From an uncultured cyanobacterium (GTDB lineage: Bacteria; Cyanobacteriota; Cyanobacteriia; Cyanobacteriales; CAWCAG01), in NCBI GenBank assembly GCA_963803805.1, contig CAWDOD010000002.1, forward strand, positions 1,184,001 to 1,248,000: a DNA stretch of 64,000 bases, in the 5' to 3' direction. The position numbers and the translations under genes are program-made. The stretch's first letter is position 1. Every line of letters begins with the position of its first letter. This document shows, piece after piece, positions 1-14,285 of the stretch. The notes under the pieces were generated by a model. It did no database searches and was not told where the DNA came from. It was given only the letters and a program-made list of their open reading frames with translations.

Positions 1-1107
1 GCATTAAATGAATCCATCGTGCGAGTAGGAGATAAAGCCTTGGCAATTTTATGGCAAGAACAATTATTTGAACTAGATGTTATCTCCCTTGCTAAACTCG
101 TTTCCAAAAAATTAAACTCTCCCCTTAACTTAAATGATTATGAAATATATTCTCCTGTTAGTATAGGAATTGCTTTTGGCAACAAGAATTCTCAAACAGA
201 AAAAAACTGCTTTTCTCAGCCAGAAGATTTACTAGATGCAGCAGATACGGCTATGAATTATGCCAAAACTGAAGCTAAAGCTGGTTATGCTGTCTTCAAA
301 CCCCAAATGCACCAGCAAGCTTTAGCACGTTTGCAGTTAGAAACAGACTTGCGACGAGGTATTCAAAATGAGCAACTGAAAATTGTTTACCAACCAATAG
401 TTTCTCTAAAAACCGGCGTTATTACTGGATTTGAAGCCCTAGTGCGTTGGAAACACCCTACAGAGGGCTGGATTTCTCCCAACAAATTTATTCCTTTAGC
501 AGAAGAAAGCGGTTTAATAAGTTCAATTGATTGGTGGATTTTAGAAAAAGCTTGCCAACAAATCAGCACTTGGCAAAGAGAAGGTAAAGTAAGTGATTCT
601 TTTGCTGTAAGTGTGAATATGTCTGGGCAAATGCTCTATCAAATCGGTATGCAGTCTCGTTTGGAGAGTATTTTAAGTAAAACTCAAATTAAAAGAGGTA
701 GCTTGAAGCTAGAAATCACTGAAAGGGTGATGATGAAACACAATGATGTCGAAACAGGAATGCTGCAACAGCTTAAGTCTCTCGGTATTAAACTTTCTAT
801 TGACGATTTTGGTACAGGTTATTCTTGTTTGGAAAGATTGCATCAACTGCCCATTGATACTTTAAAGATAGACCGTTCTTTCGTTAGTCGTATGGATTCT
901 GACGAAGAAAGTTTAGAAATTATTCGCACCATTATTACCTTAGCCCACGGCTTGGAAATGGATGTGATTGCCGAAGGGATTGAAGAAGCAGAACAAATTT
1001 CTCAACTACTTTGGTTACAGTGTGAATATGGACAAGGATATTTGTTTTCTAAACCTCTTCAAGGGAAAGCAGCAGAGAAGTTGTTAGCAGAAAAATTGTA
1101 TTGGTAA
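1..1107 (+). CDS. GGDEF(degenerate)-EAL c-di-GMP phosphodiesterase, 5' part outside the window
   Basis: Frame is open from base 1. FEALVRW, DDFGTGYS, LKIDRSF, EGIE and GQGY motifs are intact. The GGDEF position reads RVGDK. Confidence 0.9.
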   Translation, partial: ALNESIVRVGDKALAILWQEQLFELDVISLAKLVSKKLNSPLNLNDYEIYSPVSIGIAFGNKNSQTEKNCFSQPEDLLDAADTAMNYAKTEAKAGYAVFKPQMHQQALARLQLETDLRRGIQNEQLKIVYQPIVSLKTGVITGFEALVRWKHPTEGWISPNKFIPLAEESGLISSIDWWILEKACQQISTWQREGKVSDSFAVSVNMSGQMLYQIGMQSRLESILSKTQIKRGSLKLEITERVMMKHNDVETGMLQQLKSLGIKLSIDDFGTGYSCLERLHQLPIDTLKIDRSFVSRMDSDEESLEIIRTIITLAHGLEMDVIAEGIEEAEQISQLLWLQCEYGQGYLFSKPLQGKAAEKLLAEKLYW

Positions 1108-3898: not shown

Positions 3899-5344
3899 AT
3901 GAAATTCAGTATCATTATCACTACCTACAATCGTCTGCCCTTATTAAAGCGTGCTATTGAAAAATCTTTGGCTCAAACTATTCCCTGCGAAGTTATTGTC
4001 GTAGATGATTGTTCTGAGGATGGAACCCAAGATTACGTCACTACTTTTATCAAAAAAACCGGTAATAAATCCTTGGTTTATCATCGCAATCAGGTTAACC
4101 TAGGTCATTCCCAGAGTGTTAATGTCGGGGTTAAAATTGCTACAGGAGAATGGCTTAAATTTCTTGATGATGACGATTATCTTGCCCCTAATTGCATCGA
4201 AGAAATTACTCAAGTTGTTTCTCTACATCCTCAAGGGGTAATTTGCTCTGTACAAGCAGCCCAAGTAGATGAAAATGAAGTAGAAATCACCAGAACTAGA
4301 CAAATCACTGCTGGTAAAGCTTTTTATATCCCTCAAGAAGACATTCACTACGGTATGCTGCTAGAGATGGTTCCTTTTGGCACTCCGGTTCAAGTTGCTT
4401 GTCGCCGAGATGCTTTCCTCAAATCGGGGGGTTGGGATTCTGGTTTGGACGCTAATTTTGATGATATAGATTCTTGGATTAAAATTGCTCAGTTTGGAGA
4501 TGCTATTTTCATCAATGAGTGTTTAGCTTATCGTACTATTTGGTCTGGTGCATTTAACCAAAAGTTTTCTTTAGAAAAGCGGCTAGAAACCAACCTATTA
4601 ATTAAGCGAAGTATTCATGGTTTAATACATCCTAAACATCGCCACACGACCCCCAGCATTGAAACTATTGCTAGATATCTTAAGTTACATTGGAGCTTGG
4701 TTGCCCTCAAACAAACCAAATTTAGCACAGCTTTTCAATTAATGTTTCCCAACGTCTTTTTCTGGCCTGCTTGGCAAGTAATCTTAGGCAAAGCCGGAGA
4801 AAGCTATCGCAATCGTAACTTACATCAAATTGTGGTTAAACAGGATGTTAAGAAAGTCACTCAAGAGCAACAGTCTTACCAGGAAATAATAGAGCAAATC
4901 AGAAGCTATTTAAAGCTACGTTGGGGGCTAAAAGCTTTTCAAAAAGGTGAGTTTGCTCTAGGTATTCAAGCAGCTTTATCAGCTTTATTTTCTTCTCAAG
5001 TTTGGGGTATCACCTTCGCAGCCGCTCTTCCAAGATTGTATCAAGAAAATCTGGACTTTAAAAAGCAATTAAACCAGAATATTTTGGTAATGGAAGGGAT
5101 TTTCTCTTTGCTTAATGACAAGTATCAAGAAACATTACCTAACCTCCAAGAATTAGAAAAATATCTTAAAGTACGTCTATTTCTTTTAGCTTTTCGTGAA
5201 GGGAAACTGAGGGTTGCTATGAGGTTGGCTTTACCAACAATTCTCTCACCGGTGGTCTGGAAGCTATTATCGAGAATTGCTATCTTAACCCGTATTAGTA
5301 AGCAAAAACCCGCTATTCGTAGATTTATTTTATTAGAATCATGA
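3899..5344 (+). CDS. Family 2 glycosyltransferase with an extended repeated C-terminus
   Basis: SIIITTYNR, VVDDCSEDGT and FLDDDD motifs. Confidence 0.9.
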   Translation: MKFSIIITTYNRLPLLKRAIEKSLAQTIPCEVIVVDDCSEDGTQDYVTTFIKKTGNKSLVYHRNQVNLGHSQSVNVGVKIATGEWLKFLDDDDYLAPNCIEEITQVVSLHPQGVICSVQAAQVDENEVEITRTRQITAGKAFYIPQEDIHYGMLLEMVPFGTPVQVACRRDAFLKSGGWDSGLDANFDDIDSWIKIAQFGDAIFINECLAYRTIWSGAFNQKFSLEKRLETNLLIKRSIHGLIHPKHRHTTPSIETIARYLKLHWSLVALKQTKFSTAFQLMFPNVFFWPAWQVILGKAGESYRNRNLHQIVVKQDVKKVTQEQQSYQEIIEQIRSYLKLRWGLKAFQKGEFALGIQAALSALFSSQVWGITFAAALPRLYQENLDFKKQLNQNILVMEGIFSLLNDKYQETLPNLQELEKYLKVRLFLLAFREGKLRVAMRLALPTILSPVVWKLLSRIAILTRISKQKPAIRRFILLES

Positions 5345-5478: not shown

Positions 5479-6900
5479 TCACCCTAGCTTTTCTTGACAG
5501 CGTTCTACATAAATACGAGCAGTTTTATCTTCAGGATTCTGCTCTACACATTCACAGAAAAGCATTTCTGCTTCAGCATAATACTTTTGGTGGAAAAACA
5601 GTAATCCCTGTTCAAATCTAATTTTAGTCTCCAATTTTCCTTGGCGTACTTCGGGAGGATCACCATCAAACACCTCATAAATAGTAACCCAATCCGATTT
5701 ACCTTTAACTTTAACCCGGTCAATAATACGAATACAATAATTGTTAGCGTCTTTTAATTTTAAGAAAGTATGATGGGAAATAAAGAAAGATACCCCATAA
5801 CTTTCGGTTATTTCTTCTAGTCGAGCAGCTAAATTAACCGTATCACTAATAACAGTACCATCCATACGATTTTTGCCTCCAACTGTACCCAACATCAAAG
5901 AACCTGTATTAATACCAATACCAATTTTAATCGGCGCACGTCCCGGTCTTTGTCTGGTTTGATTATATTCATCTAAAAGTTTTAACATAGAAATGCCAGC
6001 GGTAACAGCATCATCTGCACTACCACTAAAAAGAGCCATAATAGCATCGCCAATATATTTATCAATGAAACCATTATTATTAATAATTGCTGGCTCCATG
6101 CGGCTTAAATAGGCATTAATAAAGTTAAAGCTATCTTTTGAACTCATGCGTTCAGAAAGACTAGTAAAAGCTCGAATATCAGAAAATAAAACCGACATTT
6201 CCTTTTCTACAGATTCTCCTAATTCCACATCAATAATACTTTTTTTATTTAAGAACTGGAGAAACTCATGGGGAACAAAACGTTCGTAAGCTTGGTTAAG
6301 TTTAAATAATTGGTTAGTATATTTGCGAAGCTCTAACTCAGCATTTTTGCGTTCTGTAATATCAGCAAAAGCCGCGATCGCATAAATAATTTCTTTCTTT
6401 TCATTAAAGATTGGTGTCGCCCAAACTTCCACAGAAATAGTTTTATTTCCTTGGCGTATTTCTACATCATCAACAGCAACACTTTCTCCTTGCAAAGCCC
6501 TTAATAAAGGTTGGCGATCGCCAGGATAAAATTCAGCAGTTTCTGATAGATAAAATTGATATACTTCTGATAGCTTCTCGGCGGTGATTTCTGGAGCGAT
6601 ACCTTTACCTAACAATTGTTCTGCTCTTTTATTAGCGTAAAAAGGTTTGCCTTGAGCATCAACAACAAAAACGCCTATGGGCATAGCTTCTAGAAATTGC
6701 TGCAATCTCTTCTTGCTTTCAACTAAAACAGTTTCTGCTTGTTTGTGTAGTTCTGCTTCAATAGTGTCAGAATGTTCAGTAGTTGTCTCTAGGAGAATTT
6801 CTAGGTCAACTTTTTCCTGCTTTAACTCCGCAAGTTCCTGACGCAGATTTTCTATCTCTAATAAGAGTTGTTCTGTAGAGGGTGGTTCTTCTTGCTGCAT
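5479..6900 (-). CDS. Coiled-coil-PAS class III adenylate cyclase
   Basis: VLFSDIRAFT, IDKYIGDAIM and GTVISDTVNLAARLE (both Asp, Lys, Thr, Asn and Arg present). PAS motifs MPIGVFVVD...DITERK. Confidence 0.9.
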   Translation of the reverse strand: MQQEEPPSTEQLLLEIENLRQELAELKQEKVDLEILLETTTEHSDTIEAELHKQAETVLVESKKRLQQFLEAMPIGVFVVDAQGKPFYANKRAEQLLGKGIAPEITAEKLSEVYQFYLSETAEFYPGDRQPLLRALQGESVAVDDVEIRQGNKTISVEVWATPIFNEKKEIIYAIAAFADITERKNAELELRKYTNQLFKLNQAYERFVPHEFLQFLNKKSIIDVELGESVEKEMSVLFSDIRAFTSLSERMSSKDSFNFINAYLSRMEPAIINNNGFIDKYIGDAIMALFSGSADDAVTAGISMLKLLDEYNQTRQRPGRAPIKIGIGINTGSLMLGTVGGKNRMDGTVISDTVNLAARLEEITESYGVSFFISHHTFLKLKDANNYCIRIIDRVKVKGKSDWVTIYEVFDGDPPEVRQGKLETKIRFEQGLLFFHQKYYAEAEMLFCECVEQNPEDKTARIYVERCQEKLG

Positions 6901-6966
6901 TGCACAGGATGGGATTCATTTTTCAAAGTTTAATTCGATTTACTTAATTACTTATTACTTACTATT

Positions 6967-7311
6967 CTACGCCCATTCTAATTCTAAGCTAGGCATCAAG
7001 CGTTGGAGATTTTTCAAGGATTTGCCTTGCCAAGGAATTTGCTTAGATCCCTGTACTACCATAGAAACATCTTTTTTCTGGCGGACTTTAATAACAAATT
7101 TTGATAAAACATTAATACCTGAACTATTAAGAAACTGCAAGTCTTGCAAATTCAAAGTAATAATGGGAGACTTTTGTTCAAGGACTTGGTGTAGTAACTC
7201 AATAATTGGTGCATATTCTTCCATACCACTAAGTCTTAGAGTCCCTTGACAGTTTACCGTTGCTGTAGATTGTTTATAGCAAATACTGTATTCTTTTGTC
7301 TTAATCTCCAT
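6967..7311 (-). CDS. Slr1659-family STAS/SiaC-like anti-anti-sigma-type protein
   Basis: 114 aa; GTLRL...LQFLNSSGI...IPWQGKSLKNLQRL signature. Confidence 0.8.
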   Translation of the reverse strand: MEIKTKEYSICYKQSTATVNCQGTLRLSGMEEYAPIIELLHQVLEQKSPIITLNLQDLQFLNSSGINVLSKFVIKVRQKKDVSMVVQGSKQIPWQGKSLKNLQRLMPSLELEWA

Positions 7312-7326
7312 TTCTACCTCTGTAAG

Positions 7327-7908
7327 CTATAACTTTAGCTGTACTAATGTGGTTAAAGCAACTATTTCTGGATCTTGCTGCACCGTCTCTAATTTCCAGC
7401 CAACCTGTGCCATATAATCATTGATTATGGTTAAAAAGCCTAACCCAGAGTTGGTATCGTTGTCACCCTGAGCATTTTCTTCTAATTGCAGAATATATAA
7501 TTCTTGGGGATCGTAGGTTGCTAGTTTGTTGATAAAAACTTTAAGTTTATCTTGGTATTGAGAACTAATGCTATTAGTAGTAGAAAAAACCACTCTATCC
7601 CGGTGAAAATGCAAGCTAATACTGATCGGATAATCCTTTTCTTCATCATTGAACTTCATTGCATTTTCTAACAATTCATTGGCAATATAACTAACAGCAC
7701 CTTTAATCTCTGCTTGATGCTCCATCTCATTTAACTCAATTTCATTGTTAAGAAAGAAAGTGGTTAAATAGTCTCCTAAAAAATCAGCCGATAAACCATT
7801 GTTGCGCCAACGTTTCTTGATGGGAACTGAGCTAGGTGAAAATTGCAGGATCAAATATTCTTGAGTTGCAGGTAGATTGTGTCCGTAGTCTCCAAATACT
7901 TGCTTCAT
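7327..7908 (-). CDS. Slr1658-family SiaB-like HATPase_c Ser/Thr kinase
   Basis: RWRNNGLSADF, N-box NELLENAMKF and G-box SGLGFLT. Start overlaps the upstream stop (ATGA). Confidence 0.8.
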   Translation of the reverse strand: MKQVFGDYGHNLPATQEYLILQFSPSSVPIKKRWRNNGLSADFLGDYLTTFFLNNEIELNEMEHQAEIKGAVSYIANELLENAMKFNDEEKDYPISISLHFHRDRVVFSTTNSISSQYQDKLKVFINKLATYDPQELYILQLEENAQGDNDTNSGLGFLTIINDYMAQVGWKLETVQQDPEIVALTTLVQLKL

Positions 7909-10397
7909 GGTAATTCAATTATTTCTAACCCTTTTCTTTTAATTGCCACCAAAGTAATATCATCATAAATCTTTTGCTCCCCAATATATTCTTTGAGATG
8001 GCTAATTACCTCAGAGCAAATCTCCCCCACAGATTTAGACCAATGTTGTTGGATTACTTGACACAATCTTTCTATGCCGTAATGTAAACCATCCTCATTT
8101 TCAGCCTCGGTAATCCCATCTGTATAAAGTATTATTCCATCTCCTGGCCCTAACTCTACCTTTGTTTCTGCTAAGAACTCAACTACATCTTCAATTAAAC
8201 CTAAAGGAAAACCTAAATCAATGGTATCAATCCGCTCAATTTCGCCATTTTGGCGTACTAAAATGACTTCTTCATGTTGACCACTTAAGGTAAGAATACC
8301 TGCTTGATAGTCCAATAAACAAAGGGTAAGATTTTTGTCAGAACTCATACGTTGGACATTCTCATACACTGTCCAATTAATAGCTTCTAGGTATTTTTTG
8401 AGGTCAGTCTCGCCATTGGCTAATAGGGTTCGTACAGCAGTTTGTACCATCAACATCAGTACCCCACTCTCTAAGCCATGTCCTGTCACATCGCCAATAC
8501 CAATTTTGAAACTACCGTCATGATAGATGACATCATAATAATCTCCTCCCACTTCGTGGGCAGGTTCCATGAAACCAGCTATGTCTAACTCTGGTATTTT
8601 CCTAAGTTCTTCCTGATTAGGGAGAATCATGGTTTGGAGGCGACGGGTGATATCTACTTCTGCACTGAGGCGGAGGTTTTCTTGTTGCAGTCTTTGATTA
8701 AGGGTGGTAATTTCTAAGTTAGCTTGGGCTAAAGCTTGTTGGGCTTCTTTGCGATCGCTTATATCTCGAAAAATGCCAGTGTAGAATCCCCCGGAGGCTA
8801 ATTTTGCTTCTGATAAGCTAGCTTCTAAAGGTAGTGTTGAATCATTGGCTTGCTTACCAATAATTTCATGTAAACCTACTCCTAATAAATTCTCTAAGGA
8901 AATATCTTCCGGCAATTCCAAAAGTTGATACATCGACATTCCTACTAAATTGCTAAGAGGATAGCCGAAAATCACTTCTGCACTAGGATTAGCCATAATA
9001 ATTTGTAAATCTAGTTTGCTGAAGGTGATGATGGCATCAGTGGCGGTTTTAAAAAGAGCTTCTGTGCGGTTTATAGCTTCTTCTAAAGCATCCATTACCT
9101 GATTGTAGCGTTGGGCAATTAAGCCGACTTCAGTAAAGGGTTCTACGGGAACACGCAAACTCAAATCTTGAGTTTCGGCTTGCAAATCCATAACCTTAAA
9201 TAAGTCGTGAACCTCTGTTTTAGCGCGATGTTCTGATATATTTAAACCAACTTTCTCTTCTTGCAAAGAAACTCGTAAAGGGAAGAAACGTTTAAGGGAG
9301 CTTAGTAGCAAGTAACTTAGACCGAAAGACCAGATAAAACAGACAAAAATCCCCAACAATTGTACTAAAATTTGGTTTTCTTTGTTTAATCCGGTTGCTA
9401 ATAAATCTGCTTTGCCAAACAAAGCTACAGCTAAAGTTCCCCATACTCCTGCCCCACCATGAACGGCGATCGCATCTACTGCATCATCAATACGCCAACG
9501 TTTAAGCCAGTAGGAAACAACCATAGTAACCCCTGCACCAATAGAACCAATAATTGCTGCTTCCCCTGTATTAACCACATTACAGTTAGCTGTGATGGCT
9601 ACTAGCCCCGCTAGAGAGCCATTAATTAGTACCTCTACTTCCGGGATTTTGTGCTGCTGCCAACCAATTATTCCGGCGGTAATCATCCCTGCCACCCCAG
9701 CTAAGACAGTGTTAACAATGATGCCAGGGACTTGCTCGTTTAATTCTAGGGTGCTGCCACCATTGAAGCCTAACCAACCAATCCACAATAACATGGCTCC
9801 TAAAACAGAAAACTGTAAATTGGAGCCGTGAATTTTAAGGGGCCTTCCTTCAGGGAGAAATCTGCCAGTGCGAGAACCAATAACTAATAAAGCGGCTAAA
9901 CCTACCCAACCTCCTACGCTATGAACAACTGTAGAACCAGCAAAATCTACAAAACCAAGTTGTTTTAACCATCCGGCTTGGTTCCAACTCCAATGGCCAA
10001 AAAAAGGATAAATTGTACTGGAAACTAAACCGGTAGTGATTAGGTAAGCCCCAAACTTCATACGTTCTGCCACTGCCCCGGAAACTATGGTGGCGGTAGT
10101 GCTACAAAACATGACTTGGAAAAGGAAGAAGGCAGCTTTTTGAGGTTGGGAGTCTAAATTGGTCAAAAAGTCCGTTGAGCCAAGCCAGCCCCCCTGGGAA
10201 ACCCCAAACATCAAAGCATAACCGAATAGCCAAAAGAAGGCTACGGAAATGCCGAAATCTGCTAAGTTTTTAACCGCAACGTTAATACTATTTTTTGAGC
10301 GTGTTAATCCTGACTCCAAACACATAAACCCTGGTTGCATTAAAAATACTAAACCAGCAGAAACCAGGAGCCAGAGGATGTTAACAGTTGTCTCCAT
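7905..10397 (-). CDS. amt: Ammonium transporter fused to HAMP-like, PAS and SpoIIE/PP2C phosphatase domains
   Basis: Amt motifs FQVMF, GHWSW, DFAGSTVVH, GWLGFNGGS and DDAVDAIAVHG. PP2C motifs GGDYYD, GDVTGHG, YTDG and DDIT. Confidence 0.92.
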   Translation of the reverse strand: METTVNILWLLVSAGLVFLMQPGFMCLESGLTRSKNSINVAVKNLADFGISVAFFWLFGYALMFGVSQGGWLGSTDFLTNLDSQPQKAAFFLFQVMFCSTTATIVSGAVAERMKFGAYLITTGLVSSTIYPFFGHWSWNQAGWLKQLGFVDFAGSTVVHSVGGWVGLAALLVIGSRTGRFLPEGRPLKIHGSNLQFSVLGAMLLWIGWLGFNGGSTLELNEQVPGIIVNTVLAGVAGMITAGIIGWQQHKIPEVEVLINGSLAGLVAITANCNVVNTGEAAIIGSIGAGVTMVVSYWLKRWRIDDAVDAIAVHGGAGVWGTLAVALFGKADLLATGLNKENQILVQLLGIFVCFIWSFGLSYLLLSSLKRFFPLRVSLQEEKVGLNISEHRAKTEVHDLFKVMDLQAETQDLSLRVPVEPFTEVGLIAQRYNQVMDALEEAINRTEALFKTATDAIITFSKLDLQIIMANPSAEVIFGYPLSNLVGMSMYQLLELPEDISLENLLGVGLHEIIGKQANDSTLPLEASLSEAKLASGGFYTGIFRDISDRKEAQQALAQANLEITTLNQRLQQENLRLSAEVDITRRLQTMILPNQEELRKIPELDIAGFMEPAHEVGGDYYDVIYHDGSFKIGIGDVTGHGLESGVLMLMVQTAVRTLLANGETDLKKYLEAINWTVYENVQRMSSDKNLTLCLLDYQAGILTLSGQHEEVILVRQNGEIERIDTIDLGFPLGLIEDVVEFLAETKVELGPGDGIILYTDGITEAENEDGLHYGIERLCQVIQQHWSKSVGEICSEVISHLKEYIGEQKIYDDITLVAIKRKGLEIIELP

Positions 10398-10731
10398 AAT
10401 GAGTTAAGGATAATCTTTCATCGCAAAAACTATTTCTCAATATAAAGGGAATACAGTACTAGTAGTTTAATGACCTCCTAGACCTTTCTAAAGCCAAGTT
10501 TTAGGAACTACAATAGATAAAACTAAGCTTGGTAATATAACGGTATATATGAGCTAGTGTCAACATAATATTTTTTTACGAATTCCCCTGCAAATTATAT
10601 TTATCTAACTCAAGTTGAACATTAAGCGAACGTGATCGCAAACGTAGCTGTCCGACTATAGAAACAATCGAGGGATAATTTATACCAATAGAAATAAAGG
10701 GGTCAACTAGATACTACTAGTCTATTAACTC

Positions 10732-13182
10732 ATGCAAATTTTAACTTCTTCTCCTTCACTACCGACCCTAGAACAAATTATTAATCCCTATCCTTTAGTT
10801 GTGCCAGCTAATGCCCCAGTTAGAGATGTGATGACTTTCTTAATACAGGGACAAAAAGATACTCACGGTGAACTTTGTGCTGTTGTTAAAGAGCAGGAAA
10901 AAATCCTGGGTATATTGACTCAACAAGATGCTATTAAATTAGCATTATTAGGAAAAAGTTTGGGATTTGTAGGTGTTGCAGATGTAGTAGAGAAAAACCC
11001 GATAGTTTTAACTGAAGCTCAATACAATAATGTTTTTCAGGTTTGTGCTTTATTGCGCCAATACCAAACTAATCACTTACCAGTTGAAGACGATCAAGGA
11101 AGCTTAAAAGGAGTAGTAACTTCAGAGTTAATTCTCAATTTTTTGCAAGGAAGTCATATTTGGCAGCAATGTCTTATTAATGAGGTGATGAATATTGAGA
11201 GCTTCAGTATTGCTCCCCAAACTTCATTACTTCAAGCGACTAAATTAATGTCTAAAAACAAGAAGAATTACGTCATTATTTGTCAAGGTATTCAACCTTT
11301 AGGATTACTAACTACCAGAGATATTCTCCAGTATCAACTGAATGACTCTAATTTGGCACAAGTCCAAGCTTCGGCAGTTATTAATACTTCTGTGTTGAAA
11401 GTATTGCCAGAAGATTCTTTAGACTCAGCATGGCCAAAACTACAGCAAAATAATTGGCAACCATTGTTAGTGATCAATAGTCAAGGAGTATTACTCGGAA
11501 CCTTAACTACAGCTAGTTTTTTGCAATGCTTTGAACCAAAGGAAATGTACAAAGATATTGAGCGATTATACCAAGAAAATCAACAGCTTAGAAACGAAAA
11601 AGCCAATCTTTTAAAGTATCAATCTCAAGAAACACAATCAGAGCTACAAGAAGCAAAAGACCAACTCCAAGCAGTTTTGGATGCTATGCCAGGAACTATT
11701 TCTTGGATTGATTCAGATTTACACTATTTAGGAGTTAACAAACAATTATCTAGTCTTTTTGAGAAGCCTACAGAAGCTTTTGTGGGCAAGCAAATTGGCT
11801 CTTTTAAACAAAATGATGAATTTGGCACTCATATGGAATGCTTCTTTTCTAGTTCCGATAAAGAGTCTTCCCTAGAAGTAGAAATGCAAGTTGGTGACTC
11901 GTTTAATAACTATTTAGTTGTTACCCGTAAGTATAACCATGATCGAGCGGCTGTGGCTGTAGGCGTTAATATAACTGACCTCAAGCGCTCAGAAATAGAA
12001 TTACGCCGCCAAAGTCTTAAATCTCGACTATTCGCTGAAATTAGCTTGAAAATTCGCCAATCTTTGCAATTAGAAGAAATCTTACAAACCACTGTTACAG
12101 AAGTACAGCAGATATTTCAAGTAGACAGAGTTTTAATTTATCATTGCTTAGCTTCTGGGCTAGATAAAGTCATTATGGAAGAAGTTTTATTTGGTTGGCC
12201 AAAAACTTTAGGGATGTCTTTTCCCCAAGAAGTTTTTTTTCAAAATCACCAAGATAGTTGGCAGCAAGGACAAGTTTTAGCTATTGCTAATTTAGAAGAA
12301 GAATATAGTCAGACTTCACCATCTTTAGTAGCTTTCTGGCGAACCTGGTTAGTGAAGGCTAAGTTAGTTGTACCTATTTTACAACAAGAGAAACTTTGGG
12401 GTTTAATCATCGTTCATCAATGTTCTAGTTCCAGAAATTGGAGTAGTTTTGAAACAGAATTATTACAACAGCTAGCTGATCAAGTAGGTATTGCCATTTC
12501 TCAAGCTCAACTTTTAAAAGAACAGCAAGAAAGTGAAGCGATGATTCGAGCATCTTTACAGGAAAAAGAAGTTTTATTAAAAGAGATTCACCATAGAGTT
12601 AAGAATAACCTCCAGGTCATTTCTAGCCTTTTTTCTTTACAGTCTTATTACCTGGAAGACTCTAAAACTTTGCGAGTACTTGAAGATAGTCAAAGTAGAG
12701 TCAAAGCCATGGCTTTAATTCATGAAAAAATCTATAATTCTCAAGATTTATCCAAGGTGGATTTTGCTAAATATATCCAAGATTTAGCAAGTTATTTATT
12801 CCATGCCTACGAACCTAACCCGCAGGTAGAGCTAGAAATTGATGTTGAACCTATCTCCCTGAATTTAGATACTGCTACTCCTTGTGGATTGTTGATTAGC
12901 GAAGTTATTTCTAATGCTTTGAAATACGCTTTCCCTAATAAAGAGCCAGGGAAAATATGGATTAAACTTCGTCATTCAAATCAAAAAGAAATGGTCTTAG
13001 AAATAGGAGACAATGGCGTGGGCTTGTCCTCTAACATTAATTTAGATAACTCAGAATCTTTAGGACTTCAGTTAGTTAGAGATTTAGCACAACAGTTAAA
13101 AGGCAAACTAGAAATAAATTGTCATCAAGGAACAAGCTTAAAAATTAGTTTTTCCGAACTACAATACCGGAGACGAATGTAA
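10732..13182 (+). CDS. CBS-PAS-GAF sensor histidine kinase (HisKA_2 type)
   Basis: N-terminal CBS pairs, PAS, CBCR-type GAF (DRVLIY...LVVPIL...LWGLIIVHQC) and EIHHRVKNNLQ H-box. Confidence 0.9.
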   Translation: MQILTSSPSLPTLEQIINPYPLVVPANAPVRDVMTFLIQGQKDTHGELCAVVKEQEKILGILTQQDAIKLALLGKSLGFVGVADVVEKNPIVLTEAQYNNVFQVCALLRQYQTNHLPVEDDQGSLKGVVTSELILNFLQGSHIWQQCLINEVMNIESFSIAPQTSLLQATKLMSKNKKNYVIICQGIQPLGLLTTRDILQYQLNDSNLAQVQASAVINTSVLKVLPEDSLDSAWPKLQQNNWQPLLVINSQGVLLGTLTTASFLQCFEPKEMYKDIERLYQENQQLRNEKANLLKYQSQETQSELQEAKDQLQAVLDAMPGTISWIDSDLHYLGVNKQLSSLFEKPTEAFVGKQIGSFKQNDEFGTHMECFFSSSDKESSLEVEMQVGDSFNNYLVVTRKYNHDRAAVAVGVNITDLKRSEIELRRQSLKSRLFAEISLKIRQSLQLEEILQTTVTEVQQIFQVDRVLIYHCLASGLDKVIMEEVLFGWPKTLGMSFPQEVFFQNHQDSWQQGQVLAIANLEEEYSQTSPSLVAFWRTWLVKAKLVVPILQQEKLWGLIIVHQCSSSRNWSSFETELLQQLADQVGIAISQAQLLKEQQESEAMIRASLQEKEVLLKEIHHRVKNNLQVISSLFSLQSYYLEDSKTLRVLEDSQSRVKAMALIHEKIYNSQDLSKVDFAKYIQDLASYLFHAYEPNPQVELEIDVEPISLNLDTATPCGLLISEVISNALKYAFPNKEPGKIWIKLRHSNQKEMVLEIGDNGVGLSSNINLDNSESLGLQLVRDLAQQLKGKLEINCHQGTSLKISFSELQYRRRM

Positions 13183-13184
13183 CT

Positions 13185-14285
13185 ATGAAACCAACAAAAA
13201 TTCTCATTGTTGAAGATGAGATTATTACCGCTAGGGATATATCTTTGAAATTGCAAAAGCTTGATTATCAAGTAGTTGGTATTGCTGACTCTGGAAATGT
13301 TGCCCTGGAAAAAGTAGCTGAATATGAACCAGATTTAGTGCTGATGGATATAGTTTTGCAGGGAGATATAGATGGTATAGAAGTGGCTCAACAAGTTCGC
13401 CATTCCTTCAATATTCCTGTGATTTATTTGACTGCCTATGTTGATCAAGAAACTTTACAAAGAGCAAAAATAACTGAACCTTTTGGTTATATTCTCAAAC
13501 CTTTTAAAGGGCAAGAACTACGCACCCATATCGAAATTGCTTTATATAAACATAAGTCAGAAATAGAAATTCGTCGTGCTTTAGCTAAGCAAAAAGAATT
13601 AAATGAGCTTAAATCTCGATTCATTACCCTTGCTTCCCATGAATTTCGTACTCCCTTAACAGCAATTCTTGGCTCTACTGAATTGCTAAGACATTATGGA
13701 GAGAGTTTACCTCAAGATAAAAGAAATCATTATCTTGAAAAAATTAAAGCTACTATTAAAGGAATGACAGATACCTTAGATAGTATTTTAACTCTTAGTC
13801 AAGCAGAAGCTGATAAAATCATCTTTAAACCAGTAGCCTTAAATTTAAGCAAAGTTTGTCAAGAGGTGGTTAGAGAATTTCAAGGAGATGAGGAAGAGGA
13901 AAAGAGGATTATTTTTTTTGATGAATGTCAGTTAAATTCTGTTTTAGCAGATAAGAATTTGATTCGCTATATTATTGCTAATTTATTAGTTAATGCAATT
14001 AAATATTCTCCTCAAAATAGCAAAATATCATTTTCCTTAATCTGTCAGGAAGGAGAAGCTATTTTCATTATTAAAGATAGTGGTATTGGTATCCCTTCAG
14101 AAGAATTGGATAAACTATTTGATTCTTTTTACCGGGCTACTAATGTAGGAGATATTCCGGGAACTGGTTTAGGTTTATCTGTGGTTAAGCAATTGGTTAG
14201 TTTGCATGGTGGCAATATAAAAGTAGAAAGTGAGTTGGCAAAAGGGGCAACTTTTACCGTTACTTTACCATTAGGCATTGTTTAA
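13185..14285 (+). CDS. Hybrid receiver-histidine kinase
   Basis: ILIVED...DLVLMD...KPF receiver; SHEFRTPL H-box; DSGIGI and GTGLGL boxes. Confidence 0.92.
   Translation: MKPTKILIVEDEIITARDISLKLQKLDYQVVGIADSGNVALEKVAEYEPDLVLMDIVLQGDIDGIEVAQQVRHSFNIPVIYLTAYVDQETLQRAKITEPFGYILKPFKGQELRTHIEIALYKHKSEIEIRRALAKQKELNELKSRFITLASHEFRTPLTAILGSTELLRHYGESLPQDKRNHYLEKIKATIKGMTDTLDSILTLSQAEADKIIFKPVALNLSKVCQEVVREFQGDEEEEKRIIFFDECQLNSVLADKNLIRYIIANLLVNAIKYSPQNSKISFSLICQEGEAIFIIKDSGIGIPSEELDKLFDSFYRATNVGDIPGTGLGLSVVKQLVSLHGGNIKVESELAKGATFTVTLPLGIV

Follow-up and report, generated by a model that had tools for sequence, protein, structure and literature searches.

An Amt-containing sensor phosphatase, an slr1658/slr1659 phospho-switch and a class III cyclase in a cyanobacterial gene block: a probable ammonium-controlled partner switch with cAMP output

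Here we describe a four-gene block of a cyanobacterial genome, located at positions 5479-10397 on the minus strand of a 64-kb window (the whole stretch of DNA that was analysed, from contig CAWDOD010000002.1 of assembly GCA_963803805.1), which probably constitutes an ammonium-controlled partner switch with cyclic AMP (cAMP) as its output. The block encodes a sensor phosphatase with an Amt domain, an slr1658-family kinase, an slr1659-family STAS protein and a class III cyclase. Comparison of sequences, folds and genomes established the domain identities, the ammonium-receptor signature, the catalytic residues, the folds of the kinase and the STAS protein, and the association of a short helix at the head of the cyclase with slr1658/slr1659 gene pairs. 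The initial annotation of this stretch had read it as an ammonium-sensing operon in which the STAS protein passes the signal to the cyclase. What it observed is confirmed and its interpretation is partly supported: the protein identities, the fold analogy, the receptor and the docking helix held up, but the conservation of the four genes as a set did not. The genes are as follows.

7905-10397, minus strand: gene 1, sensor phosphatase of 830 amino acids, Amt - HAMP-like linker - PAS - PP2C (SpoIIE family), assigned from its open reading frame (ORF), Pfam and NCBIfam
7327-7908, minus strand: gene 2, slr1658-family GHKL-type kinase (SiaB-like) of 193 amino acids, assigned by NF052618
6967-7311, minus strand: gene 3, slr1659-family STAS phosphoprotein (SiaC-like) of 114 amino acids, assigned by NF047705
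5479-6900, minus strand: gene 4, predicted adenylate cyclase of 473 amino acids, proposed docking helix - PAS - class III catalytic domain - TPR-like tail, assigned from its ORF and Pfam

All four ORFs appear in the ORF list of the window exactly where the initial annotation had placed them, co-oriented and closely packed: genes 1 and 2 overlap by 4 nucleotides (7905-7908), and gaps of 15 bp and 66 bp separate gene 2 from gene 3 and gene 3 from gene 4. Both flanking genes are opposite in orientation, the one at 3899-5344 (plus strand) convergent and the one at 10732-13182 (plus strand) divergent, so the four genes form a self-contained block; they are presumably co-transcribed as an operon.

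The link between the switch and its output enzyme was analysed through the N-terminal part of the cyclase, whose regions are listed below.

6739-6879, minus strand: 47-residue N-terminal helix motif (amino acids 8-54), ...EKVDLEILLETTTEHSD..., proposed docking site, common to 30 output segments
6346-6708, minus strand: cyclase PAS domain (amino acids 65-185), Pfam PAS E 1e-10, also PAS_9, PAS_4 and PAS_8
5683-6204, minus strand: class III catalytic domain (amino acids 233-406) with metal residues D241/D285, adenine-specifying K281/T349, N356 and R360, Pfam Guanylate_cyc E 3.8e-18
5482-5655, minus strand: TPR-like C-terminal tail (amino acids 416-473), Pfam TPR below cut-off, E 0.025

The helix has a consensus of about 47 residues (S...LL.EIE.LRQE.E.LKQEK.DLEILLETTTEH.D..E.EL), with DLEILLETTTEHSD at amino acids 32-45 of the cyclase, and no Pfam family covers it. 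A hidden Markov model (HMM) of the motif, searched against 14,849 six-frame segments of the window genome, gave a single match, gene 4 itself (E 6.7e-23), and one of the 37 cyclase-domain matches in this genome carries it. The 30 output segments that have the motif in common are of differing enzyme types. Often present in two or three tandem copies, it heads GGDEF proteins, two subfamilies of cyclases, HAMP-only proteins and HisKA and HisKA_3 proteins, all of which adjoin slr1658/slr1659 pairs. Cyclases of the same subfamily with a membrane sensor of their own (dCache-HAMP-PAS-cyclase, loci L128 and L138) are without it, and so is an Amt-fused cyclase encoded elsewhere in the window genome, which is absent from the genome HMM matches. 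In a phylum sample of 401 genomes, in which the slr1658 family was scored against its curated cut-off, 72 genomes contain slr1658. The motif was found in 59 genomes, namely 58 of these 72 and 1 of the 329 genomes without slr1658 (G324), and the association spans 31 genera. Collectively, these sequence comparisons show that the motif belongs to the slr1658/slr1659 switch. They support the reading of the gene 4 helix as a docking site, which the initial annotation had proposed for the N-terminal coiled coil: the motif is common to varied outputs beside the pairs, unique in its genome and tracks slr1658.

To view the gene pair in its surroundings, approximately 16 kb was fetched around 66 places. 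Fifty-six of them derive from the 103 complete above-cut-off slr1658 matches: all matches were taken from a single genome of each genus, or from two genomes for the largest genus. A 104th match, broken in G252, was excluded, and the other 10 places came from a search for relatives. The slr1658 ORF was recognised in 65 of the 66 loci (L134 failed). The STAS gene of the slr1659 family adjoins slr1658 in 59 of these 65 loci, a PP2C gene lies at most three genes away in 44, a motif-bearing protein is present in 29, and cyclases of the window subfamily are present in 14. The sensor parts of the PP2C proteins are diverse, including Amt-PAS, HAMP, dCache-HAMP, receiver (often with CheB), HisKA-receiver, CHASE-kinase-receiver, Ser/Thr kinase-AAA-GAF, CHASE2, ethylene-receptor N-domain, GAF and PilJ types. 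The outputs beside the pairs are similarly varied, with cyclases of the window subfamily and of another subfamily, short GGDEF proteins, small HAMP proteins, histidine kinases and MscS-like channels. The slr1658/slr1659 pair is a widespread cyanobacterial signalling kit, of which the proposed wiring with Amt and cyclase is a rare variant.

These counts also bear on the idea that the cyclase adjoins the switch by chance and is regulated independently. The genome has 37 cyclase-domain matches, which makes a cyclase gene a frequent neighbour, and other Amt-PP2C loci have no adjacent cyclase. Against this, only the gene 4 cyclase carries the motif that travels with slr1658/slr1659, window-type cyclases recur in 14 of the 65 loci, and the arrangement across the 66-bp same-strand gap is kept in a genome of the same genus (G401). 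We therefore hold a chance neighbourhood to be highly improbable.

Several other arrangements were observed at slr1658 loci. MscS-like channel genes encoding approximately 530-600 amino acids, without the helix motif, follow the pair in L115, L119, L156, L158, L165, L175 and L179, which suggests that the same switch has an output of a second, distinct type. In L117, L120, L135 and L137, a giant Ser/Thr kinase-AAA_16-GAF-PP2C protein of approximately 1770-1834 amino acids is encoded directly upstream of slr1658, and in L117 and L120 a cyclase of 411 amino acids with a weak copy of the motif is encoded between the giant PP2C and slr1658 genes. Furthermore, one ORF in L174 (5781-7472) combines two motif copies with both a GGDEF and a window-type class III cyclase domain; if this is a true fusion and not the product of a missed stop or frameshift, one protein would make both cyclic di-GMP (c-di-GMP) and cAMP under the same switch.

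The input of the system was investigated in gene 1, which has four regions.

9219-10376, minus strand: Amt domain (amino acids 8-393) with the N1/N2 ammonium-receptor signature Q21, E28, N44, D47, F48, T103 and S106 and the twin His H159/H313, Pfam Ammonium_transp E 7e-122
9078-9167, minus strand: HAMP-like linker (amino acids 411-440), DLSLRVPVEPFTEVG...RYNQVM, Pfam HAMP below cut-off
8730-9071, minus strand: phosphatase PAS domain (amino acids 443-556), Pfam PAS_9/PAS_8 and TIGR00229
7935-8519, minus strand: PP2C/SpoIIE domain (amino acids 627-821) with D619, D622, D636, D760, D812 and D813, Pfam SpoIIE E 3.6e-39

Every motif quoted in the initial annotation for the twin-His pair, the Phe gate and the PP2C Asp residues was located by position, with STVVH at 155-159, IAVH at 310-313, FQVMF at 93-97 and GFNGG at 210-214 in the Amt domain, and GGDYYD at 617-622, GIGDVTGHG at 633-641, YTDGITEA at 758-765 and YDDITL at 811-816 in the phosphatase. 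The SpoIIE domain scores 135 bits against a Pfam cut-off of 25. In an alignment of 28 Amt-PP2C homologues, the key residues of gene 1 are invariant or nearly so, and the six PP2C Asp residues are strictly invariant; of the best 120 homologues listed, 81 carry Amt together with SpoIIE. The PAS-PP2C part is clearly fused to the C-terminus of Amt by Pfam, which bears out the PAS domain that had been reported from the sequence. The HAMP-like linker reported along with it is weak, reaching only E 0.039 and 14.7 bits against a cut-off of 25. Some gene 1 homologues have a precomputed PF00672 match in their entries, and the linker residues R415, P417, P420, F421, T422, Y431 and N432 are invariant in the 28 homologues.

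Sd-Amt1, an Amt-HAMP-diguanylate cyclase whose structure has been solved, is turned on as a receptor by two ammonium ions bound at the N1/N2 sites (Pfluger et al. 2024, PMC11152129), and a receptor signature, QX6EX15NX2D[F/T]X54-60TX2[S/T], was proposed in the same work (PMC11152129). The Amt domain of gene 1 matches this expression exactly from Q21 to S106. Applied strictly, the expression also matches 79 of the best 120 homologues listed; the other 41 may escape it through truncated starts or altered spacing. The genome has four Amt genes, and their N1/N2 columns compare as follows.

Window Amt-PP2C protein: Q E N D F T S
1140-residue Amt-HisKA-HATPase-REC-cyclase fusion: Q E N D V T S
Two unfused Amts: N E N V F T S

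The two unfused Amts (n = 2, same genome) have Asn and Val at the positions of Gln21 and Asp47, and in this genome the Gln and the buried Asp are confined to the two Amts with fused signalling domains. The complete signature thus backs the proposal of the initial annotation that Amt acts here as an ammonium sensor: judged by its residues, the gene 1 Amt domain is supported as a receptor, and ammonium would be its ligand. One may alternatively suppose that ammonium is not decisive, so that Amt transports or anchors while the phosphatase and the cyclase follow PAS signals such as redox, light or a metabolite. Each of the two enzymes does have a PAS domain, the pore residues of the window Amt are intact (twin His, Phe gate), and the proteins with the N1/N2 signature include characterised transporters, which may be bifunctional (Pfluger 2024, PMC11152129). 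We nevertheless regard this supposition as unlikely, because the Gln and Asp are confined to the genome's two signalling-fused Amts, because fusions of Amt to PP2C, histidine kinase or cyclase modules occur across many lineages, and because two Amt-transducer fusions were shown to be ammonium receptors (PMC5764959; PMC11152129). Beyond the cyanobacteria, Leptospira and other spirochaetes (L067, L068, L071, L072, L076) have Amt fused to a distant PP2C domain, 21-29% identical to that of the window; these proteins lack PAS as judged by tblastn segments, and no slr1658/slr1659 match lies within 7 kb of them.

The two middle genes would constitute the phospho-switch. Gene 2 scores 271.2 bits against the NCBIfam model NF052618 (slr1658_cyano, cut-off 200) and 242.4 bits against NF047703 (cut-off 100), and it is the only slr1658 member of the genome above cut-off. 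Gene 3 scores 172 bits against NF047705 (slr1659_superfam, cut-off 100). The kinase falls below the curated SiaB cut-off (NF038262, 24.3 bits against 85), and the STAS protein falls below the Pfam cut-offs for STAS (PF01740, 21.5 against 22.6) and SiaC (PF09345, 18.4 against 24.5). By sequence, then, genes 2 and 3 are members of the slr1658 and slr1659 families and not of the SiaB and SiaC families. Sequence searches against the PDB were near-empty for both proteins, returning only a chance match to lambda Cro for gene 2 (E 0.31) and only weak SpoIIAA matches for gene 3 (E 0.14), and a fold search was therefore needed. AlphaFold models were built from alignments made in this analysis. The kinase model (predicted local distance difference test, pLDDT, 86) matches UsfX, SiaB, RsbW and SpoIIAB in the PDB, with SiaB (6kko_A) at rank 2 (TM-scores 0.53/0.59). 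The STAS model (pLDDT 94.6) has as its best match SiaC in the SiaC-SiaD complex (7e6g_F, TM-score 0.72, rank 1), followed by free SiaC and anti-sigma antagonists, so that its fold is STAS-like despite the sub-cut-off PF01740 score. The likeness to SiaABCD noted initially therefore holds, with support from these models, at the level of fold: the STAS model is closest to SiaC, and SiaB ranks near the top for the kinase model.

The functional residues of the switch were examined next to these folds. The kinase has the N box ANELLENAMKF at 76-86 and the sequence NSGLGFL at 153-159, and N77, E78, N82 and G157 are invariant in an alignment of 70 kinase sequences; the N box reported initially is thus present, and of the G boxes reported with it a single one is clear. 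The NSSG described for the STAS protein is found within LNSSG at 61-65, aligns to the DSSG of SpoIIAA, and starts the helix 64-78 of the model as N62-S63-S64-G65. N62, S63 and G65 are invariant in 62 STAS sequences and S64 is at least 90% conserved. In SiaC, helix 2 has N67-T68-S69 at its N-terminal end; T68 reaches in between the two stalk helices of SiaD, and phosphorylation of T68 blocks SiaD binding (PMC8457831). Ser63 is the predicted acceptor because the NSSG stands at the start of a helix as the T68 motif does in SiaC; the correspondence of N62-S63-S64 with N67-T68-S69 is one of motif and position and not a residue-level structural alignment.

7123-7125, minus strand: codon of Ser63 (N62-S63-S64-G65), predicted phospho-acceptor, from conservation and the SiaC/SpoIIAA correspondence

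The output domain of gene 4 is, by Pfam, a class III cyclase (PF00211) and not GGDEF. In an alignment to the structures 3r5g and 2w01, the metal pair D241/D285 and the Asn/Arg residues N356/R360 are all kept; K281 aligns to a Glu of the guanylate cyclase Cya2 (2w01), and T349 aligns to a Thr of CyaB (3r5g). A Lys/Thr pair defines class IIIb adenylate cyclases, and gene 4 is thus predicted, from Lys281/Thr349, to be a class IIIb adenylate cyclase with cAMP as product. The full catalytic set noted in the initial annotation was recovered, as D241, D285, K281, T349, N356 and R360, but the PAS domain between helix and catalytic domain had been missed. For the C-terminal tail, TPR matches with E of approximately 1e-4 to 1e-5 are found in the cyclase homologues of L120, L147 and L177. 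The best sequence matches of gene 4 among solved structures are the class IIIb cyclases CyaB of Pseudomonas aeruginosa (3r5g) and cyanobacterial CyaC (1wc0), with which it has the metal Asp pair, the Lys/Thr specificity pair and the Asn/Arg residues in common; it differs from them in its proposed N-terminal docking helix, PAS domain and TPR-like tail. We know of no regulation of a class IIIb adenylate cyclase by a STAS protein.

These elements suggest the following mechanism. The Amt domain would act as the receptor, with ammonium occupying the N1/N2 site beside the pore, and the signal would pass via the HAMP-like helix and the PAS domain to the PP2C phosphatase. The phosphatase would then reverse the action of the slr1658 kinase, which would phosphorylate the slr1659 STAS protein at Ser63. 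Unphosphorylated STAS protein would bind the 47-residue N-terminal helix of the adjacent cyclase and aid formation of the active cyclase dimer, as SiaC does for SiaD, so that the class IIIb enzyme (Lys281/Thr349) would make cAMP. The phosphorylation of Ser63, its reversal by PP2C, and the binding and activation of the cyclase are all proposed by analogy with SiaABCD. As ammonium switches the transducer on in Sd-Amt1, the most likely sign, by that analogy, is that ammonium turns the phosphatase on, the STAS protein is dephosphorylated and cAMP rises.

The protein that binds the helix could also be a different one. In a classical partner switch, the slr1658 protein would bind the helix and hold the cyclase inactive, and unphosphorylated STAS protein would free the cyclase by capturing the kinase. 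Anti-sigma factors that work in this mode (UsfX, RsbW, SpoIIAB) are among the fold matches of the kinase model, and the comparative data tie the motif to the gene pair, not to either member. However, the STAS model most closely matches SiaC bound to the SiaD stalk, and in L127 and L158 it is the STAS gene, not the kinase gene, that is duplicated beside the output. We consider helix binding by the kinase to be possible but rather unlikely, and infer that the STAS protein is the binder.

Several points weigh against an ammonium-controlled partner switch with cAMP output. The data do not tell the STAS protein from the kinase as the helix binder, both switch proteins miss the curated SiaB, SiaC and STAS score cut-offs, the HAMP assignment of the gene 1 linker is under the Pfam cut-off, and the two PAS domains, in phosphatase and cyclase, could feed in other signals. 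Related genomes are not independent, and the phyletic counts overstate the support accordingly. In addition, 14 of the 72 slr1658-positive genomes have no motif match, so the motif is not the sole way out of the switch. Consensus scans of the region for promoters and terminators did no better than chance: they found 11 promoter-like sites where shuffles gave an expectation of 14.9, and 5 terminator-like sites where 4.6 were expected; none of the terminator-like sites falls within the three intergenic junctions. The best promoter-like site is weak evidence.

10534-10563, minus strand: best promoter-like site, upstream of gene 1, 11/12 consensus positions

The distribution of the set is a further point of this kind, as the four genes are not conserved together outside the genus. 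Full-length Amt-PAS-PP2C is encoded in 8 of the 401 genomes, all eight of which have slr1658 and the motif. It adjoins slr1658 in seven of them, the exception being G344, where the two lie approximately 105 kb apart on the same contig and a motif-bearing GGDEF gene stands beside the pair. A contig scan found further Amt-PAS-PP2C loci with the pair (L004, L025, L034) and others without the pair within 7 kb (L008, L015, L033). At Amt-PP2C loci, a cyclase follows the pair only in the window genome (G000) and in G401 of the same genus, and of the eight genomes only that of the window has a cyclase output. The G401 locus (L170) is 93-99% identical to the window for the phosphatase, the kinase, the STAS protein and the N-terminal and catalytic parts of the cyclase, and 72% identical for the cyclase tail. 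The expectation in the initial annotation that the genes would be co-conserved did not hold for the set, as Amt with cyclase was seen only in this genus (G000, G401). In five relatives (G008, G014, G092, G194, G394), a single short GGDEF protein bearing the motif is encoded elsewhere; it is the genome's only motif match in G008, G014, G092 and G394 and the only complete one in G194, and G328 was left out of this check of motif-bearing outputs. At relatives' loci L124, L130, L131, L025 and L034, a class I lysyl-tRNA synthetase gene follows the STAS gene; this gene had been a candidate for an unrecognised output and was rejected on that identity. The common wiring of the Amt-PP2C switch is thus, judged by these genomes, probably from ammonium to c-di-GMP, the same end result as in Sd-Amt1, with the relatives using a phospho-switch to reach it. 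In the window genus, the tag appears to sit on a cAMP cyclase and not on GGDEF.

A second connection between Amt and this type of cyclase was found outside the window, at G000:C2:753713-757135, where the same genome encodes the 1140-residue Amt-HisKA-HATPase-REC-class III cyclase fusion. Its cyclase and tail are 65% identical to gene 4 over 274 amino acids, and its Amt domain is 60% identical to that of gene 1. Full-length orthologues with 58-65% identity are present in 6 of the 80 loci scanned (L012, L013, L019, L022, L029, L031), and among the gene 1 homologues there are Amt-PAS-cyclase fusions (P0090, P0107, P0112, P0118). As read from their domains, Amt-cyclase fusions independently connect Amt sensing to the cyclase subfamily of gene 4. 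The fusion itself resembles a sensor kinase for ammonium that would control the cyclase by phosphorylating its own receiver, and no description of an Amt-HisKA-HATPase-REC-cyclase fusion was found in the literature searched. The operon is therefore not the sole candidate route from ammonium to cAMP in this genome, a point of which the initial annotation was unaware. The cyclic-nucleotide repertoire is unusually large for a genome of 5.3 Mb, with its 37 class III cyclase-domain matches and 17 matches to cyclic nucleotide-binding domains above the family cut-off, and the latter imply that cAMP receivers are plentiful.

The gene order and the logic of the operon are those of SiaABCD of Pseudomonas aeruginosa (PP2C SiaA, kinase SiaB, phosphoprotein SiaC, diguanylate cyclase SiaD). 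Both systems comprise a sensor PP2C, a small GHKL kinase, a small phosphoprotein of STAS fold and a nucleotide cyclase with an N-terminal helical stalk. The tandem motif copies in relatives recall the SiaD stalk, which has two SiaC-binding motifs and carries four bound SiaC per dimer (PMC8457831). The systems differ in that the window sequences score under the curated Sia cut-offs, including that of SiaA (NF038263, 60 against 700), and in that the window output is a class III adenylate cyclase with PAS whereas SiaD is a GGDEF enzyme; GGDEF outputs that have the N-terminal motif of gene 4 exist in relatives. The input also differs, being an Amt domain here, whereas SiaA has a transmembrane-HAMP-PP2C architecture. 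Finally, the predicted acceptor is Ser and that of SiaC is Thr, and the docking motif differs in sequence from that of SiaD.

Among Amt receptors, Ks-Amt5 (Amt-histidine kinase) and Sd-Amt1 (Amt-HAMP-diguanylate cyclase) resemble gene 1 in joining an Amt with the N1/N2 signature to a C-terminal cytoplasmic transducer (PMC5764959, PMC11152129); their helical linker has a putative counterpart in the HAMP-like linker of gene 1. In gene 1, by contrast, the transducer is a PP2C acting on a separate phospho-switch, and the output enzyme is a separate protein that would make cAMP. Apart from one reference title, PMC5764959 and PMC11152129 do not mention phosphatase or adenylate cyclase fusions. In the literature searched, with one possibly relevant review outside its scope, neither an Amt-PP2C fusion nor an Amt-linked adenylate cyclase was described.

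Genes 2 and 3 are members, by curated cut-offs (NF052618, NF047703, NF047705), of the families of slr1658 and slr1659 of Synechocystis sp. PCC 6803. Mutation of slr1658 leads to poor recovery from iron limitation and to overexpression of pgr5 (Zer et al. 2018, cited in PMC7555055). For both genes, the published work found in our search is genetic only, with no mechanism, input or output described. In the literature searched, slr1659 occurs only as a node of a predicted network that groups Slr1657-1660 with Sll0537, which we take to be the product of the amt3 gene.

The surroundings of the block include two genes divergent from it (10732-14285, plus strand), encoding an 816-residue sensor kinase, in which, by eye, there appear to be CBS pairs, PAS, GAF and a kinase core, and a 366-residue receiver-histidine kinase. 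The window opens, at 1-1107 (plus strand), inside a gene whose encoded C-terminal part, as judged by eye, finishes with a c-di-GMP phosphodiesterase domain of the EAL type (QPIVSL...EALVRW).

Two linked, bolder readings may be entertained, which together we regard as unlikely. Related cyanobacterial class IIIb cyclases have been reported to respond to bicarbonate. The gene 4 cyclase might hence be a carbon/nitrogen coincidence detector, with bicarbonate acting on the class IIIb core and the ammonium state acting on the helix via the slr1659 switch; if so, cAMP would report the carbon/nitrogen balance without PII, 2-oxoglutarate or NtcA. The 47-residue helix, in turn, might be a portable address tag that re-aims one phospho-switch at cAMP, c-di-GMP or kinase outputs, in this case from c-di-GMP to cAMP.

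The kind of system, represented by SiaABCD, and Amt receptors with kinase and diguanylate cyclase transducers are known already. What is new here is the Amt input to such a switch, a cAMP output in that context and the evidence that an output tag is exchanged between enzyme classes. The locus offers a handle on the unstudied slr1658/slr1659 pair, for which an input (ammonium), an acceptor (Ser63), an output enzyme and a 47-residue docking helix are all predicted here. Since Amt-PP2C relatives carry the same tag on a GGDEF enzyme, a rewiring from c-di-GMP to cAMP by the movement of a short helix is suggested. Nitrogen sensing in cyanobacteria is understood almost wholly through PII, 2-oxoglutarate and NtcA, and if the proposed reading is true, a receptor for ammonium in the membrane that signals through cAMP would be a separate and direct nitrogen route.

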